From a virus (lineage: Duplodnaviria > Heunggongvirae > Uroviricota > Caudoviricetes): a stretch of DNA of 5,567 nucleotides. The number at the start of each line of letters is the position of its first letter. Position 1 is the first letter of the stretch. This document shows positions 1 through 5,567 of this stretch, one piece after another. The stretch lies in IMG/VR virus record IMGVR_UViG_2703718778_000001, positions 1 through 5,567 of that record; one strand, written 5' to 3'. A program made the position numbers and the translations under genes. Under the pieces are notes generated by a model. It was not told the origin of the DNA, made no database searches, and saw nothing but the letters and a program-made list of their open reading frames with translations.

Positions 1-367
1 CCTGCGCAACGCAGAGGGAACAGAGCTGGCAGCAGTGACCGAATTTCTGGCGTTCATTTCACGCAATATGCATGACGAAAGCCCGGGCAATTCACTGACC
101 ATATGGTGCAAGGGCGCATCCTTCGATTTCCCGATCCTGAAATCCGCCATAACACGCACAGCCGGAGAAAAAAGCATTCCGTGGTGCTACTGGAACGAGC
201 GCTGTATGCGCCCGCTTATCGCCATGGCTGAGTCAACGGGCTGGAAAATGCCAGGCAGATCAGGAAAAGAGGCCATTGCTCACACCGCACTAAGCGACGC
301 CATTTACCAGGCAAAGATCGTGTCAGAAATCTGGCAGCGCTTCACAACACCATTCCTGAACATATGA
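1..367 (+). CDS. DnaQ/DEDDh-like 3'-5' exonuclease, C-terminal part (5' end lies outside the window)
   Basis: The reading frame is open from position 2 to the TAA/TGA stop at 365-367, so the listed GTG at 35 is probably internal and the gene starts upstream. The C-terminal region carries an H-x-A-L-x-D-A motif (AHTALSDAIYQ) resembling the Exo III motif of DnaQ/RNase T-type exonucleases. Family assignment is from motif recall only. Confidence 0.55.
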   Translation, partial: LRNAEGTELAAVTEFLAFISRNMHDESPGNSLTIWCKGASFDFPILKSAITRTAGEKSIPWCYWNERCMRPLIAMAESTGWKMPGRSGKEAIAHTALSDAIYQAKIVSEIWQRFTTPFLNI

Positions 368-599
368 GGTGAAGCCATGGTCGCAATCCTGAATATGCGT
401 TGCCGCCCCCCCTGAACGTGGAAACAAAAGCCCGCACGTCTCTGCGCTTATTTCGCAACGGAGCGCGGAATTTTTCACGCATAAAGCCCCACGACTACCT
501 GGTCATAAGAATCGGTTTTCGCTGGCGATTACTGAGCAAAAACAACGGGAAGTCATGGGATTTATTAACGCACGAAACCTATAACAGAGAGGCCGCGTT

Positions 600-1574
600 A
601 TGAGCGAAAAACTGTTATCCGGCACACCGCTGAAATGGGTGGGCGGAAAAAACCGCATCATGGACACACTGAAGGCGCACCTGCCAGAAGCTGACTGCCT
701 GGTTGAGCCGTTCGTGGGTGGCGCATCGGTATTCATGAACACCCGTTACAGCCGCTGCATCCTTGGAGATTCCAACGGTGCGCTGATTAATTTCTGGCGG
801 GCAGCACGGGACAACACCGACAGCCTGATCGATGAGGCAAAAGACCTGTTCCTGGAACATAACAACAGGGCTGACTATCTCGCCATCCGCAACACCTTTA
901 ATGCAGAGAATCATGCATTCCTGAGCACGGGAATAAGCGACCGTCGGAAACTGCGACTGGCCGCCATGTTTTTGTACCTCAACCGACACTGTTTTAACGG
1001 CCTGTTCCGCGTGAATGGAAAAGGCGATTTTAACGTTCCTTTCGGCAGCTACAGCAAACCTTATTTTCCTGAGCGGGAGATCCGCGCATTTGCAGACAAG
1101 GCAAACAGCACCCGAACACTGCTTGTTCATGGCGATTTTCGAAAAACGCTGAGCTGTGCCAGCCACCTGTTCAGCATGGGTAACACGCTTTGCGTGTACT
1201 GCGATCCCCCTTACCTGCCATTCAGTGGCCGGGACAATTTCACCGCCTATGGAAAACCATTCACGAAGGACGACCACATTCGCCTGAGAGCAGCGCTTGA
1301 CCGCCTTTCACAGGAAACGGGCGGCATGACCAGCATCACCATCTCCAATTCCGACACACCGGAAACCAGACGCATTTATCAGGGTTACCGGATGAACTGC
1401 ATACAGGCACCACGAAGCGTTGGCGCAAGAACCAGTGAACCCGCAATGGAAGTTATCGCCACCCTGAAGCAGTGCGACACCTGCGGTCGCCATGGCGGTG
1501 GCTGGTGCCCGGACTGCGGCCCGGCGACGGGAGATGCAACGTACAGCGCGATGTTTACCTCTGCTCACCCGTGA
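600..1574 (+). CDS. dam: Dam-family N6-adenine DNA methyltransferase (probably GATC-specific), with a ~35-aa Cys-rich C-terminal tail
   Basis: ATG at 600 is preceded by AGAGAGG (585-591). The protein has the Dam hallmarks LKWVGGK near the N-terminus, CLVEPFVGGASVF, FLYLNR..FNG..R.N..G.FNVPFG.Y.KPYFPE, and the catalytic DPPY motif (VYCDPPYLPFS), co-linear with E. coli Dam as I recall it. The extra tail contains CDTCGRHGGGWCPDCG (CxxC-x7-CxxC). Confidence 0.92.
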   Translation: MSEKLLSGTPLKWVGGKNRIMDTLKAHLPEADCLVEPFVGGASVFMNTRYSRCILGDSNGALINFWRAARDNTDSLIDEAKDLFLEHNNRADYLAIRNTFNAENHAFLSTGISDRRKLRLAAMFLYLNRHCFNGLFRVNGKGDFNVPFGSYSKPYFPEREIRAFADKANSTRTLLVHGDFRKTLSCASHLFSMGNTLCVYCDPPYLPFSGRDNFTAYGKPFTKDDHIRLRAALDRLSQETGGMTSITISNSDTPETRRIYQGYRMNCIQAPRSVGARTSEPAMEVIATLKQCDTCGRHGGGWCPDCGPATGDATYSAMFTSAHP

Positions 1575-1609
1575 ATAACCAGATGAATCAGCAACACAGG
1601 AGTCAACCG

Positions 1610-1855
1610 GTGAATAACAAAAGCACGCAGCAATCAATCGTCGTTTCAGCACTGAGATATCTGGCCTGCATCAAACAACAGGAAGCAAGAGAGGCGGTGG
1701 AGAAGCGGGATTCGGGGATATTTGTGGCACTTGGACACAGCTATACGGCAATGCTTGCCAGCAGGTCCGCTGAATTCATTGAGGAGCAGCAACGGGAAAT
1801 TGAGGCACTTAAAACCGCAGCAAACAAGGAACGGAGAGGAAGGGGCGAACAATGA
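1610..1855 (+). CDS. hypothetical small protein (~81 aa) with a charged, coiled-coil-like C-terminus
   Basis: GTG at 1610 is preceded by AGGAG (1598-1602) at 7-nt spacing; an in-frame ATG at 1583 without a Shine-Dalgarno is the alternative start. The listed ORF start at 1472 lies inside dam and is rejected. The TGA stop at 1853-1855 overlaps the next ATG (ATGA). Confidence 0.5.
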   Translation: MNNKSTQQSIVVSALRYLACIKQQEAREAVEKRDSGIFVALGHSYTAMLASRSAEFIEEQQREIEALKTAANKERRGRGEQ

Positions 1856-2070
1856 TCCAGGAATCAACCATTATCCGGTTCACAGCCAACGGCCGTCAGT
1901 ACGAAGTCGACGAAAGCCTGATTGACCCGGGCATGACACGCCAGGACTCACGCAATCCTGAGATGCATCACATCCGCCTTATCAACGGTTCGCACTTCTG
2001 CGCCACAAACGTGGAAGAAGTACGCGTGCTGACAGCAACACGCAATACGGGAGGTAAAGCATGGCAGTGA
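1852..2070 (+). CDS. hypothetical protein (72 aa)
   Basis: ATG at 1852 is preceded by GGAGAGGAAGGGG and overlaps the upstream stop as ATGA, suggesting translational coupling. Its 3' end overlaps the next gene's start by 10 nt. No recognisable motif. Confidence 0.55.
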   Translation: MIQESTIIRFTANGRQYEVDESLIDPGMTRQDSRNPEMHHIRLINGSHFCATNVEEVRVLTATRNTGGKAWQ

Positions 2071-2411
2071 TTTATATCGCCGGTCCCATGACCGGATGCA
2101 AAGACCACAACAGGACGGCATTTTGCGCGGAGGACCTGAAACTTCGGTGCGCCGGAAACATCGTTCTTAATCCTGCCGTGCTGCCTGACGGATTAAGCCA
2201 GCAGCAGTACATGAGCATTTGTATTCCGATGCTCATGTGTGCCGATGCCATTTACTTACTGGATGGATGGGAAGAGTCCGCTGGCGCACGGGCTGAGTAC
2301 GCAATGGCACTCAAGCTGAACATGCCGGTGTCATTCCCGGAAAATCGGGCGGCCGGCGAAACTGTCGCACAGCTGCTTGGCAAATCAAAAGCCGCACAGG
2401 CGACTGAGTAA
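2061..2411 (+). CDS. DUF4406 / nucleoside 2-deoxyribosyltransferase-like (NDT-fold) protein
   Basis: ATG at 2061 is preceded by GGGAGG (2049-2054). The N-terminal YIAGPMTG motif resembles the conserved YxAGP motif of the nucleoside 2-deoxyribosyltransferase-like superfamily. The protein is small (116 aa) and standalone. Family assignment is from motif recall and needs an HMM check. Confidence 0.65.
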   Translation: MAVIYIAGPMTGCKDHNRTAFCAEDLKLRCAGNIVLNPAVLPDGLSQQQYMSICIPMLMCADAIYLLDGWEESAGARAEYAMALKLNMPVSFPENRAAGETVAQLLGKSKAAQATE

Positions 2412-2909
2412 CCGACCGGAGATCGAAACATGATTGCGCGAAGAGCTGCCAACCGCCTCACAGGCTTTATTCCAGGCAAGATTAATCATGCACTCCATGA
2501 TGGGACTGTCACTTTCCTCAACAAAGGAGAGGCGCGCAATCATGCATTCCTTACTAATCACATGGCGCTGACTGATAAGGCGCTGGTAACTGACTGCCTG
2601 CCATTCAGCCTTTTCAGCCCTGCGTTCAAAACTGGCAGCCATGCACTGCCAGAGCAGAAACAGAACCACACTGAAGAGTACCAACACAACAAAATCACAC
2701 AGGACAAACGCCGCAACACCAACCAGAAAGGCGCTGATTCGCAGAGCAGCAGAAACGCGTCGGTGAAACACACATGTAATACGTTCAAGCCAGTAGCTGT
2801 ACCACAGGTCAAAAAGAATGTCGTAATCAGAAGGGAGCTTATCACTCATCAGAAACACCCCGCGTATGCAGACAATCACCCGTTGCCAGGTGATATTAAT
2901 TCGCCACAT
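2385..2909 (-). CDS. candidate hypothetical membrane protein (one predicted transmembrane helix); low-confidence gene
   Basis: The minus-strand ORF is open from 2933 to 2385, with ATG candidates at 2909 and 2849 and only weak Shine-Dalgarno support. It has a ~30-aa hydrophobic segment (ISAFLVGVAAFVLCDFVVLVLFSVVLFLLW). Over the first ~168 codon triplets of the region (2430-2933), first-codon-position composition is more gene-like on the minus strand (G about 32%, T about 21%) than on the + strand shadow frame (G about 25%, T about 10%), by manual count. Its 3' end overlaps the DUF4406 gene convergently by 27 nt. Confidence 0.3.
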   Translation of the reverse strand: MWRINITWQRVIVCIRGVFLMSDKLPSDYDILFDLWYSYWLERITCVFHRRVSAALRISAFLVGVAAFVLCDFVVLVLFSVVLFLLWQCMAASFERRAEKAEWQAVSYQRLISQRHVISKECMIARLSFVEESDSPIMECMINLAWNKACEAVGSSSRNHVSISGRLLSRLCGF

Positions 2910-3032
2910 TCTAACCACATCAGCACGCAACACAAAAACCGCTTGCCAGCGCTCGTCGTGTCAGGTTACATTTCCGCTGCACCTCATAAAACGGGTGCCG
3001 GGATTGGAACCCCGCCGACTAGCAAAGCGCAC

Positions 3033-3053
3033 AACCGCGCCAGCGGTTTTTTT
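3033..3053 (+). terminator. candidate intrinsic terminator: short GC stem-loop followed by a T7 run
   Basis: AACCGC (3033-3038) pairs with GCGGTT (3043-3048) around a GCCA loop, then TTTTTTT spans 3047-3053. The U-tract follows the stem only on the + strand. The stem is short (4 G-C plus 2 A-U pairs), so strength is uncertain. Confidence 0.35.
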
Positions 3054-3106
3054 GTGCGTACTGTATCGCCACGTCTTTTTCGCGTCAGAATAATGGCGGG
3101 GCGTAC

Positions 3107-3130
3107 GGGGCCGACTTCGGTCGGGCCGGG
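3107..3130 (+). other. GC-rich stem-loop with a UUCG tetraloop (structured RNA or DNA element)
   Basis: CCGAC (3111-3115) pairs with GTCGG (3120-3124) around TTCG (3116-3119), with flanking G/C pairs able to extend the stem across one mismatch. It is followed by GGGTTCTTT. It sits in the region with no convincing + strand gene. Confidence 0.4.
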
Positions 3131-3232
3131 TTCTTTGCTAGCCGGTAGTTCCAACCCTGTACGTCTCGCCACCCTGAGCTTGGAACCTCGGGTTGGTGAG
3201 TTTTCAGAACTTACTAGCAAAGAGGCCACACC

Positions 3233-3460
3233 ATGGCAAACCGCAAGCAACAGCGCGCCCGCGCTGAGCGTCTTCACATCCGCACTGAAATCAACCGCAG
3301 ACTTTTCCGCGCCTCACGCGTCGCGCAAATCATGCACATCAATATGCTGCATGAGCGCACTCACGCTCTGTCAAACCGTTACTGTGCCGCTGTTTTCAGC
3401 TACCTGGCGGATGATCTCGCGGAGCTGCAGGACCTTATCAACCAGCAACACCACCACTAA
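3233..3460 (+). CDS. hypothetical small basic protein (75 aa)
   Basis: ATG at 3233 is preceded by AGAGG (3221-3225) at 7-nt spacing. The N-terminus is strongly basic (MANRKQQRARAERLHIRTEINRR) and the protein ends in HHH. Its position two genes upstream of the replication gene matches the small-ORF cluster of P2-like phages. Confidence 0.55.
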   Translation: MANRKQQRARAERLHIRTEINRRLFRASRVAQIMHINMLHERTHALSNRYCAAVFSYLADDLAELQDLINQQHHH

Positions 3461-3528
3461 ACAACATCCTGAAGCCATCCCGCACCCGTGCGCGGGAGGC
3501 TTCCGCACGTCTGTTACCGGAGGTTCTC

Positions 3529-3945
3529 ATGAAGAGCGTTAAGGGACTTTCAGATATTCAGGACTTTTTTAACTGGATGTGGGCGGTGGATCCCCTGCTG
3601 GCTTCCCGCCTGAACAACTGGCACGACTACTACCGCCGCGCCTGTAAACAGGCCGCCCGCAGCATCACCACATACGGGGATTTCTCCTTCACCGTTGACG
3701 GTCGTTACCGCGTGGACGTGAAAGGTGACGGTGATGGCTTTGGTTTATTTCACATCAACGGCACCGACAGTACCGCCATCAGCTGGTCATCGTCAGAGAT
3801 GGCACTGGTTCTGGAAATGACAACCCACAGCGTGGCCGTGAAAGGCATATACACCGCAGAAGACTTTATCGGTGAATACCAGCGCCTTCTCGTGCTGTAC
3901 CGCGCGGCGTTTCAGGAGGTCACTGGCGGGGAGTACGACGCATGA
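3529..3945 (+). CDS. hypothetical protein (138 aa)
   Basis: ATG at 3529 is preceded by GGAGG (3519-3523). The TGA stop at 3943-3945 overlaps the ATG of the downstream replication gene (ATGA at 3942-3945). No recognisable motif. Confidence 0.65.
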   Translation: MKSVKGLSDIQDFFNWMWAVDPLLASRLNNWHDYYRRACKQAARSITTYGDFSFTVDGRYRVDVKGDGDGFGLFHINGTDSTAISWSSSEMALVLEMTTHSVAVKGIYTAEDFIGEYQRLLVLYRAAFQEVTGGEYDA

Positions 3946-5567
3946 GTGACCGCAATGCACAGCTGGCGTACCCGTGGAACGCACCGCTACCGGTTATCGA
4001 TCCTGAAACGTTCGGCAGAGCACAACCAACCGCATTACGCCAGGCCATTCAGAGCTACATCAACGAGGACATTCGCATTGATGCCAGACTGGATGAAGAA
4101 ACCGTCTCCTTCCTGACAAACACAGACGAAGGCAAGCGAATTAATTCGCATCTTCACCACGACGAAGAGCGTCGGGTCAGACTGGAAAAACTGGCGAAGC
4201 ACAAACGCGAGAATCCGCCCACGGTGGTATCGGAAGCCATGGCAGAACTTCGCGCCCTGCCCTCGTTTCTTGGCAACGTGCTCATTCGTGATCTGGCGCG
4301 TTTAAACCGCAAACAACAAAGCGCCCGCAATGAAGGCGTGAAAAACAACAACACTCACGTGGCCGATAACTTCGTTCGCCGTGGACTGCGCACACGCCTG
4401 AAACGCATCGAACAGGTGAATGAATGCTTCGCCACGACGGCATTCAAAGCCACCGCAGCGCGTCATCGCCTTGATGAATTACTCATGCTGCCACAACTCA
4501 ACCGTGATCAAATTCAGCGCCTTGCCACACTAACGGCGGCGGCATTTTCCACCGAACTGGAACGCAGATGTGATGAAGTTACTGAGCGGACAGGAAAAGG
4601 CGACGATAACCTGTTTACCTGGTTGCTGACTTACCAGCAGCTGGCGCGCATGGCAATAAAACTGGGCGTGAACCCACCATACTGGCCGTCACTCGAGATC
4701 AGACGTGACCGCCGCACGGCACCAGACCCTGAACTGGTACCGGGCGCGGTAATGCGTATCACCTGCGCCACCTGGTGGAACAACCAGCTGCGCCACCTCG
4801 CTGATCTCTGGCGGGAGGAATTACTGCGTGCCGCCGGAAGAGTATCGCGCAAGGCATCCCCCTACATCAGCCATGAGTCACTCCAGGAATTCCGGGAGAA
4901 ACGCCAGCGCACCCGTGATTTTCTCAAAAGCTGGGACATTGAAAACGAAGACGGTGAACGCCTGAGCCTGGAGGACGTGTACTGGTCAGGGCTGGGGAAT
5001 CCGCGCAACCGCCGCAACGAGATGATGGCCTGCGTCAGAGGGATGGAACAGGTCGCCGAATCGCGTGGTGACTCCGCGTTCTTCGTGACAGTGACCTGCC
5101 CTTCCCGCTTTCACAGCGTAAACGAGGACGGCAGCCTGAACCCGAAATACAACGGTGCCACCGTGCGCGATGCCAGTGATTATCTGGTTTACGACGTCTT
5201 TGCAGCTGCAAGAAAAAAACTCAACAAAGAAGGCCTGAGCTGGTACGGGGTGCGCACCGTTGAGCCACACCATGACGGCACACCGCACTGGCACATGCTG
5301 GTATTCACCGCCCCGGACAATGAAGAACGCATCATTGAAATCATGCGTGACGCAGCAATCAAATCAGATCGCGCAGAACTGGGGAATGATATTTCTCCGC
5401 GCTTCAAATGCGAAAAAATCGACCCGGCAAAAGGCACACCGGCAAGCTACATCGCAACCTATATTGGCAAGAACCTGGACGCCAGCACCTTTCACGACAA
5501 TGACCCGAAAACCGGCAAACCTTACGCCGATAAAGAATCGGGAAAAACCATGGCGGAAACCGTGGAA
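3942..5567 (+). CDS. A: P2 gpA-family rolling-circle replication initiation endonuclease, N-terminal ~542 codons (3' end lies outside the window)
   Basis: The ORF starts at ATG 3942, preceded by GGGGAG, and by manual translation has no stop through the window end at 5567. It is absent from the supplied ORF track only because it has no stop in the window. It contains an HUH-type motif (PHWHMLVF, codons at 5283-5306) typical of the HUH endonuclease superfamily to which P2 gpA belongs. Overall similarity to P2/186 A protein is from recall. Confidence 0.88.
   Translation, partial: MSDRNAQLAYPWNAPLPVIDPETFGRAQPTALRQAIQSYINEDIRIDARLDEETVSFLTNTDEGKRINSHLHHDEERRVRLEKLAKHKRENPPTVVSEAMAELRALPSFLGNVLIRDLARLNRKQQSARNEGVKNNNTHVADNFVRRGLRTRLKRIEQVNECFATTAFKATAARHRLDELLMLPQLNRDQIQRLATLTAAAFSTELERRCDEVTERTGKGDDNLFTWLLTYQQLARMAIKLGVNPPYWPSLEIRRDRRTAPDPELVPGAVMRITCATWWNNQLRHLADLWREELLRAAGRVSRKASPYISHESLQEFREKRQRTRDFLKSWDIENEDGERLSLEDVYWSGLGNPRNRRNEMMACVRGMEQVAESRGDSAFFVTVTCPSRFHSVNEDGSLNPKYNGATVRDASDYLVYDVFAAARKKLNKEGLSWYGVRTVEPHHDGTPHWHMLVFTAPDNEERIIEIMRDAAIKSDRAELGNDISPRFKCEKIDPAKGTPASYIATYIGKNLDASTFHDNDPKTGKPYADKESGKTMAETVE

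Follow-up and report, generated by a model that had tools for sequence, protein, structure and literature searches.

The DUF4406 gene, its fold and candidate catalytic residues

The 5,567-nucleotide window analysed here (positions 1 to 5,567 of the IMG/VR record IMGVR_UViG_2703718778_000001, assigned to the Caudoviricetes) carries on its plus strand, at 2061..2411, a gene for a 116-residue protein of the DUF4406 family (PF14359), as judged from the open reading frame (ORF) listing, Pfam, PHROGs and an identical NCBI protein. The gene has an ATG start at 2061, and a Shine-Dalgarno sequence, read from the DNA as GGAGG (2050..2054, plus strand), lies 6 nt 5' of it. The ATG falls within the end of a 72-residue ORF on the same strand (1852..2070; phrog_3459), the stop codon of which occupies 2068-2070, and this 10-nt overlap, the usual signature in phage operons, suggests that translation of the two genes is coupled.

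The match to PF14359 (E=6.6e-33) lies far above the family cut-off (113.4 vs. 22 bits) and aligns residues 3-91 of the protein with profile positions 2-90/91; these residues constitute the core domain, which is followed by a clade-specific helical tail (residues ~93-114). The cross-match to DUF1937 (PF09152) stayed below threshold in the same Pfam scan, a scan of the protein against NCBIfam gave no match, and PHROGs placed it in phrog_355, named 'nucleoside 2-deoxyribosyltransferase' (E=1.3e-39). ORF 2061-2411 is thereby confirmed as a real gene and a bona fide DUF4406 member, in agreement with the initial annotation, which had proposed this membership from the DNA letters alone. A 100%-identical protein is already in NCBI under the name 'DUF4406 domain-containing protein [Escherichia coli]', and in RefSeq the gene is likewise annotated in the prophage of NZ_AP045176 (97.6% identity); since both protein and family label are public, the gene counts as known and not as new, and this window itself adds to its correct, ordinary annotation nothing but a sharpened hypothesis. 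That the ORF arose by chance, for which only its small size speaks, was rejected as practically inconceivable in view of the Pfam match, the 18,916 cluster relatives, the Shine-Dalgarno sequence and a ratio of nonsynonymous to synonymous substitution rates (dN/dS) below 1.

A P2-like prophage in the chromosome of E. coli JNEC-KY179 shares 97.6% identity with the window; it sits after rraA and has an integrase and a helix-turn-helix repressor at one end and, at the other, genes of P2 type for portal, terminase, capsid and tail. The window is the early operon of such a P2-like prophage of E. coli, and the early-gene setting claimed for the DUF4406 gene, on the same strand as a methyltransferase, holds. 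Its supposed adjacency to that methyltransferase needs qualification: the Dam DNA adenine methyltransferase (D12 class; 600..1574, plus strand) is apparently encoded in the same operon, but two small ORFs on the plus strand, one of 81 residues (1610-1855) and the 72-residue one at 1852-2070, intervene.

An AlphaFold2 model of the protein built with a 30-sequence alignment (mean predicted local distance difference test, pLDDT, 89.6; predicted template modelling score, pTM, 0.84) has a three-layer alpha/beta fold with the element order beta1-alpha1-beta2-alpha2-beta3-alpha3-(beta4)-tail helices. The first matches in Foldseek were solved structures of the nucleoside 2-deoxyribosyltransferase (NDT) family, of the NDT/DrHyd superfamily, with Trypanosoma brucei NDT ranking first, followed by DNPH1, MilB, BcmB and other NDTs. 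The NDT-like fold originally surmised was thus recovered, and no unrelated fold was found. By sequence, a direct phmmer search of the PDB with the 116-residue protein returned no match, and the first family profile gave only insignificant ones; T. brucei NDT came within reach (E=0.0023) only with a broader profile of 50 DUF4406 sequences. There, the YIAGP of the phage protein falls on the YIAGP of the enzyme (Y5 on Y), D62 on the Asp at the start of the strand, S73 on that of 'DCGT' (DxGT), G75-A76 on the following G-T, and E79 on the catalytic Glu of 'AFEVG' (GTAFEVG). The sequences of human DNPH1 and Lactobacillus leichmannii NDT were verified against PDB chains. With DNPH1, hhalign paired Y5/Y24, S73/S98, E79/E104 and D62/D88 at E=0.084, which is not significant alone; with L. 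leichmannii NDT, only the N-terminal 42 residues aligned and the catalytic residues were not mappable.

Conservation, counted over 267 relatives, is concentrated in a few motifs. The first, Y5-I-A-G-P-M-T-G12 (2073..2096, plus strand), covers beta1 and the next loop; G8 is kept in 258/258 relatives, T/S11-G12 is conserved, and position 5, which falls on the catalytic Tyr of NDT and DNPH1, is Tyr in 235 and Phe in 22 of 258 relatives. N17-R18 (2109..2114, plus strand), found in about 95% of relatives (N17 in 252/262, R18 in 249/263), lie in a flexible loop modelled with low confidence and are a candidate phosphate contact, while F21 is kept in 263/263. After beta2 comes a family-specific loop, L36-N-P-A-x-L-P-x-G-L45 (2166..2195, plus strand), with (near-)invariant P38 and P42, and then, on helix alpha2, Y50 (2208..2210, plus strand; 265/267 relatives), one turn before the position of the general-acid Asp of NDT and DNPH1. 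The second motif, W70-E-E-S73-A-G75-A76-R-A-E79 (2268..2297, plus strand), contains S73, kept in 264/264 relatives and falling on DNPH1 Ser98 and NDT Asp92, and E79, which aligns with the nucleophile Glu of both T. brucei NDT and human DNPH1 and is kept in 259/263 (98%), so that the catalytic Glu expected of such a fold could be located. The protein of the window has all of G8, F21, P38, P42, Y50, S73, N17, R18, W70, G75, A76 and E79.

By these alignments, the nucleophile Glu and its Tyr are present in DUF4406. Nucleoside-specific NDTs carry an Asp where DUF4406 has S73; in L. leichmannii NDT this is Asp92, a ligand of the substrate 5'-OH, and D92 was confirmed in the verified sequence of this enzyme. 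At the position that separates nucleoside from nucleotide enzymes (Asp92 vs. Ser98), DUF4406 has the nucleotide-type Ser.

Family members and their neighbours

A search with the DUF4406 profile retrieved 18,916 proteins at E<=0.001 among 1.84 billion cluster representatives (50% identity), and tblastn detected the domain in 522 of 50,697 phage records, with hosts among the Proteobacteria and Actinobacteria; these include Vibrio, Gordonia, Arthrobacter, Mycobacterium and Pseudomonas phages, the P1-like D6 and the N15-like phiKO2. The family, with roughly 19,000 clusters, is abundant and yet has no assigned activity. PF14359 belongs to a clan of N-(deoxy)ribosyltransferase-like domains, and a temperate phage or prophage setting is typical of DUF4406. 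The E. coli P2-like clade stands apart from the rest of the family by its helical C-terminal tail of ~25 residues and by Gln instead of Glu/Asp at position 49. DUF1937 (PDB 1T1J, a hypothetical protein of P. aeruginosa) is a separate Pfam family, 18% identical to the protein.

The names given to members are inconsistent, ranging from NDT, hydrolase and dCMP deaminase to MazG-like and hypothetical. In actinophages, Nebkiss gp126 and Leona gp53 are labelled 'deoxycytidylate deaminase', and LittleE gp170 'MazG-like pyrophosphatase'; because Pfam finds only DUF4406 in all three, these names are annotation errors. For the family at large, the labels 'nucleoside 2-deoxyribosyltransferase' and 'dCMP deaminase' are probably wrong.

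To survey genomic context, we fetched 80 viral loci, the usable ones of which reduced to 43 distinct contexts, and scanned three genes on each side in 42 of them against Pfam. The DUF4406 gene commonly lies just after replication genes, in the company of accessory genes of DNA metabolism, with Phage_rep_O (7 contexts), DnaB (7) or IstB/DnaC-like (8) upstream, and is followed by small genes of the nin-region type (Ead/Ea22 in 9, DUF551 in 4, NinX in 2). Clustering of the neighbours in the 43 contexts revealed no obligate partner gene, the largest cluster occurring in 8. DNA methyltransferases, of four families in all, occur among the three upstream genes in 9 of the 42 contexts and directly adjoin the DUF4406 gene in Shewanella phage 1/41 and mycobacteriophage Brujita. 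Suggestive as it is, this association is weak, since methyltransferases abound in these regions anyway, and it is too confounded for functional inference.

A link to all-alpha nucleoside triphosphate (NTP) pyrophosphohydrolases, which produce nucleoside monophosphates (NMPs), appears more specific. The DUF4406 gene of mycobacteriophage Nebkiss overlaps with a gene for MazG, that of mycobacteriophage LittleE is separated by one small ORF from a PRA-PH/MazG-like gene, and in one proteobacterial context a PF04447 gene (dATP/dGTP pyrophosphohydrolase) is a neighbour. Further, BFVD contains two proteins, A0A6J5LQ71 and A0A6J5S4N9, in which a DUF4406-like domain (34-37% identity) is fused to a dATP/dGTP diphosphohydrolase N-terminal domain, and another in which such a domain is fused to DUF4326.

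Architectures differ elsewhere in the family as well. In a common 203-residue variant of E. coli and P1-like phages (e.g. phage D6 orf89), DUF4406 occupies residues 7-96 and is followed by ~100 residues with no Pfam match, recorded in D6 as similar to N15 gp57; in gp55 of mycobacteriophage Mufasa the order is reversed, a 150-residue unassigned N-terminal part preceding DUF4406. Among the 40 longest close relatives of the protein, no second Pfam domain was found, the surplus being unannotated sequence or mis-called starts.

Proposed function and competing explanations

The initial annotation had offered, as hypotheses only, an effect on nucleotide pools or on DNA modification or the degradation of an immune signal, and these ideas keep that standing here. 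The evidence tilts towards an N-glycosidase acting on a nucleotide with a 5'-phosphate and away from a true deoxyribosyltransferase. We tentatively propose, with a probability of about 0.4, that the DUF4406 protein is a minimal hydrolase of the NDT/DrHyd superfamily that cleaves 5'-phosphorylated nucleotides, is not a transferase, and has a role in the nucleotide pool during phage replication. The protein would be made early in lytic growth of the P2-like prophage, probably as a dimer. In the manner of DNPH1/Rcl and MilB, it would hydrolyse the N-glycosidic bond of a canonical or modified deoxynucleoside monophosphate (dNMP) or NMP. E79, positioned by Y5, would attack C1' to give a covalent ribosyl-enzyme intermediate, the phosphate being held by S73, the T11-G12 loop and N17-R18, and the outcome would be a nucleotide pool reshaped or cleaned while phage DNA is replicated.

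Human DNPH1 has the catalytic triad Y24/D80/E104, of which E104 forms the covalent intermediate, and binds the 5'-phosphate through S98 and through S128' of the partner subunit (PMC10603095). The hhalign pairing matches the catalytic Tyr and Glu of this enzyme with Y5 and E79, and Ser98, the phosphate-binding residue of its SxGxxxE motif, with the invariant S73. MilB and BcmB, N-glycosidases of CMP and hydroxymethyl-CMP, are 18% identical to the phage protein and were compared residue by residue at the shared Glu position only; MilB is an antibiotic biosynthesis enzyme of ~160 residues, in contrast to the 116 of the phage protein.

Several differences weigh against the proposed nucleotide N-glycosidase. 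The general-acid Asp (NDT D72, DNPH1 D80) appears, by helix register, to map to C54, a position that varies between C, G, D and A in the family, and DNPH1 E55 and H56 likewise have no conserved counterpart, the E55-H56 segment falling in a gap of the hhalign alignment. The helical extension of DNPH1 that bears S128' and its last strand seem to be absent, as the DUF4406 domain stops after beta4 and the tail helix of this clade (102-114) is not homologous to the C-terminal extension of DNPH1. Keeping in mind that the similarity to DNPH1 is not significant at the sequence level, neither in hhalign nor in the phmmer search of the PDB, we note that DNPH1 and MilB are apparently the enzymes that the DUF4406 protein most resembles and that the likeness nevertheless seems to fail on sequence significance, the general acid and the C-terminal elements. 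What the known enzymes have and DUF4406 lacks could be made up for by the LNPAxLPxGL loop, Y50 and N17-R18.

The residue pattern, with the Glu kept, Asp92 replaced by a DNPH1-type Ser and the general acid lost, amounts, together with the pyrophosphohydrolase fusions, to a concrete and cheaply testable biochemical hypothesis. If such an enzyme does remove particular (d)NMPs early, it would represent an additional step in the management of nucleotide pools by temperate phages, with possible consequences for nucleotide-based immunity.

An unlikely alternative is that the protein serves counter-defence, either by cleaving or sequestering a nucleotide-derived immune signal or substrate (NAD-derived ADP-ribose (ADPR) or cyclic ADPR isomers, or a base-modified nucleotide) or by offsetting NDT-type effectors such as those of the methyltransferase-triggered retrons Ec86/Sen2. 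The TIR-DrHyd-SLOG clade does include TIR and SLOG enzymes that act on NAD-derived signals, the Kongming system is defeated by depletion of dAMP, and retrons with NDT-like effectors are triggered by phage methyltransferases. However, experimental or contextual evidence specific to this role was not found: the gene lies among replication and nin-type genes and not in known anti-defence clusters, and the methyltransferase association is modest, at 9 of 42 contexts. TIR domains, ThsB and the NDT-like effector of retron Ec86 are host NADases, signal synthases or effectors that deplete adenine nucleotides, and their motifs and partners differ from those of DUF4406; a PADLOC scan that included the retron NDT effectors matched the 116-residue protein to 0 families at E<=0.01. 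A literature search on DUF4406/PF14359 and on NDT-like anti-defence proteins of phages yielded neither a functional study nor a paper linking DUF4406 to defence. P2-like phages are also not known to carry a dNMP kinase, the trigger of Kongming, which again weighs against this explanation.

In its broadest form, the same idea would make DUF4406 proteins widespread early phage enzymes that disarm nucleotide-based immunity, by cutting a messenger or precursor (an ADPR-derived signal, or one of the dAMP/dITP type) or by offsetting NDT-type effectors fired when a phage methyltransferase marks the multicopy single-stranded DNA (msDNA) of a retron. The recurrent but non-obligatory company of methyltransferases would then make sense; as a general account of the family we hold it to be quite improbable.

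It is also quite improbable that the protein has no catalytic activity and instead binds nucleotides or regulates, as a sensor or sponge with the pocket kept for binding only. Inactive binding versions occur throughout the TIR-DrHyd-SLOG clade, the general acid is missing and the protein is very small, but a Glu kept in 98% of relatives together with Tyr/Phe and Ser is more typical of enzymes, and the fusions to pyrophosphohydrolases suggest a metabolic pathway.

A genuine nucleoside 2-deoxyribosyltransferase, swapping bases for deoxynucleoside salvage, would share with NDTs (PF05014, EC 2.4.2.6; compared here through the enzymes of L. leichmannii, T. brucei and C. thermalis) the fold and the nucleophile Glu, E98 of the DxGTxxE helix in L. 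leichmannii and E79 in the phage protein, and the name is used by phrog_355 and many GenBank records. One phage PF05014 protein has been reported to have real transferase activity (bioRxiv 10.1101/2025.10.22.683976), which counts in favour of such an assignment. This reading is nonetheless very improbable, since in DUF4406 the position of Asp92 holds an invariant Ser, Asp72 (the general acid and base ligand) appears not to be conserved, the C-terminal third, which in NDTs completes the neighbouring active site and helps to build the acceptor-base site, is absent, the PF05014 profile does not match the 116-residue protein at E<=0.1 (some actinophage relatives match weakly, below cut-off), and the record names are homology transfers, not assays, in a family that is also called 'hydrolase', 'dCMP deaminase' and 'MazG-like'.

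Allelic exchange and other features of the window

The clade of the 116-residue protein is rare, being present in 31 of 5,426 complete E. coli genomes. Among eight E. coli alleles of the DUF4406 gene, dN/dS was 0.09-0.46 where computable, mostly 0.2-0.45, and the gene is under purifying selection, as expected of a translated gene. In comparison with the closest prophage, 47 of 132 mismatches across 5.5 kb lie within the 351 bp of the DUF4406 gene (dS 0.33, dN 0.10, omega ~0.3), and Dam is identical; the reverse holds for NZ_CP075697, in which the DUF4406 gene is near-identical and Dam divergent. Diversifying selection was rejected as the source of the local divergence peak, since dS is also high, and with omega of ~0.3 the peak reflects a recombinational swap of alleles. 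The opposite patterns in the two prophages show that the gene is exchanged between prophages as a mosaic cassette. Between alleles, it is mainly the C-terminal tail and, at the surface, helix alpha1 (residues 22-35) that change in amino-acid sequence; the motif residues are all unchanged. The 81-residue ORF at 1610-1855 is swapped for an unrelated allele (dN ~0.7) in five of seven compared prophages.

The first gene in the window encodes the C-terminus of a 3'-5' exonuclease (Rv2179c-like; 35-367). It is followed by a ParE-like ORF of 67 residues (400-603, plus strand; PF24732, E=4.7e-18), which overlaps the Dam start codon by 4 nt and for which no antitoxin-like partner is apparent within the window. 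A scan of the window for tRNA and tmRNA found neither.

Downstream, a convergent ORF on the minus strand (2385..2933; phrog_6315, from the ORF listing and PHROGs) and the DUF4406 gene overlap by 27 nt at their 3' ends. The product of this ORF has a long hydrophobic segment, ISAFLVGVAAFVLCDFVVLVLFSVVLFLLW, and its terminator-like hairpin (2405-2390, minus strand) is located within the coding sequence of the DUF4406 gene. The annotated length of its counterpart differs among prophages (465, 525 or 648 nt), and the ORF has the look of a moron-like insertion.

Two structured RNAs, an isrK-like small RNA (2979-3053; 67.9 bits) and a C4-like antisense RNA (3089-3176; 84.2 bits), precede a gene of the 'Derepression' family (3233-3460; 75 residues; PF25738, E=3e-7). 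Beyond it lie an ORF without assigned function (3529-3945) and, from 3942, the replication endonuclease gene A, a short way upstream of which the RNA module is located in the P2-like early operon. Complementarity is perfect between the C4 loop TCTTTGCTAG (3132-3141) and CTAGCAAAGA (3214-3223), a stretch that overlaps the Shine-Dalgarno sequence of the 'Derepression' gene, and the same loop region is complementary at 12 of 13 positions to 3015-3027 within the isrK-like RNA. By its arrangement, the segment 2979-3460 looks like an RNA immunity module of the P1 c4/ant or P4 CI/epsilon type; the block 2913-3451 is common to P88-like phages at ~86% identity.

A 370-residue ORF that runs through this region on the plus strand (2430-3542) is almost certainly spurious. 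Its sole Pfam signal is a weak match to Phage_ASH (E=9e-5, residues 180-269), and the matching part is encoded by exactly the DNA that gives rise to the isrK and C4 RNAs. In part, the 'Ash protein family' may be a translation of the conserved isrK/C4 RNA region.
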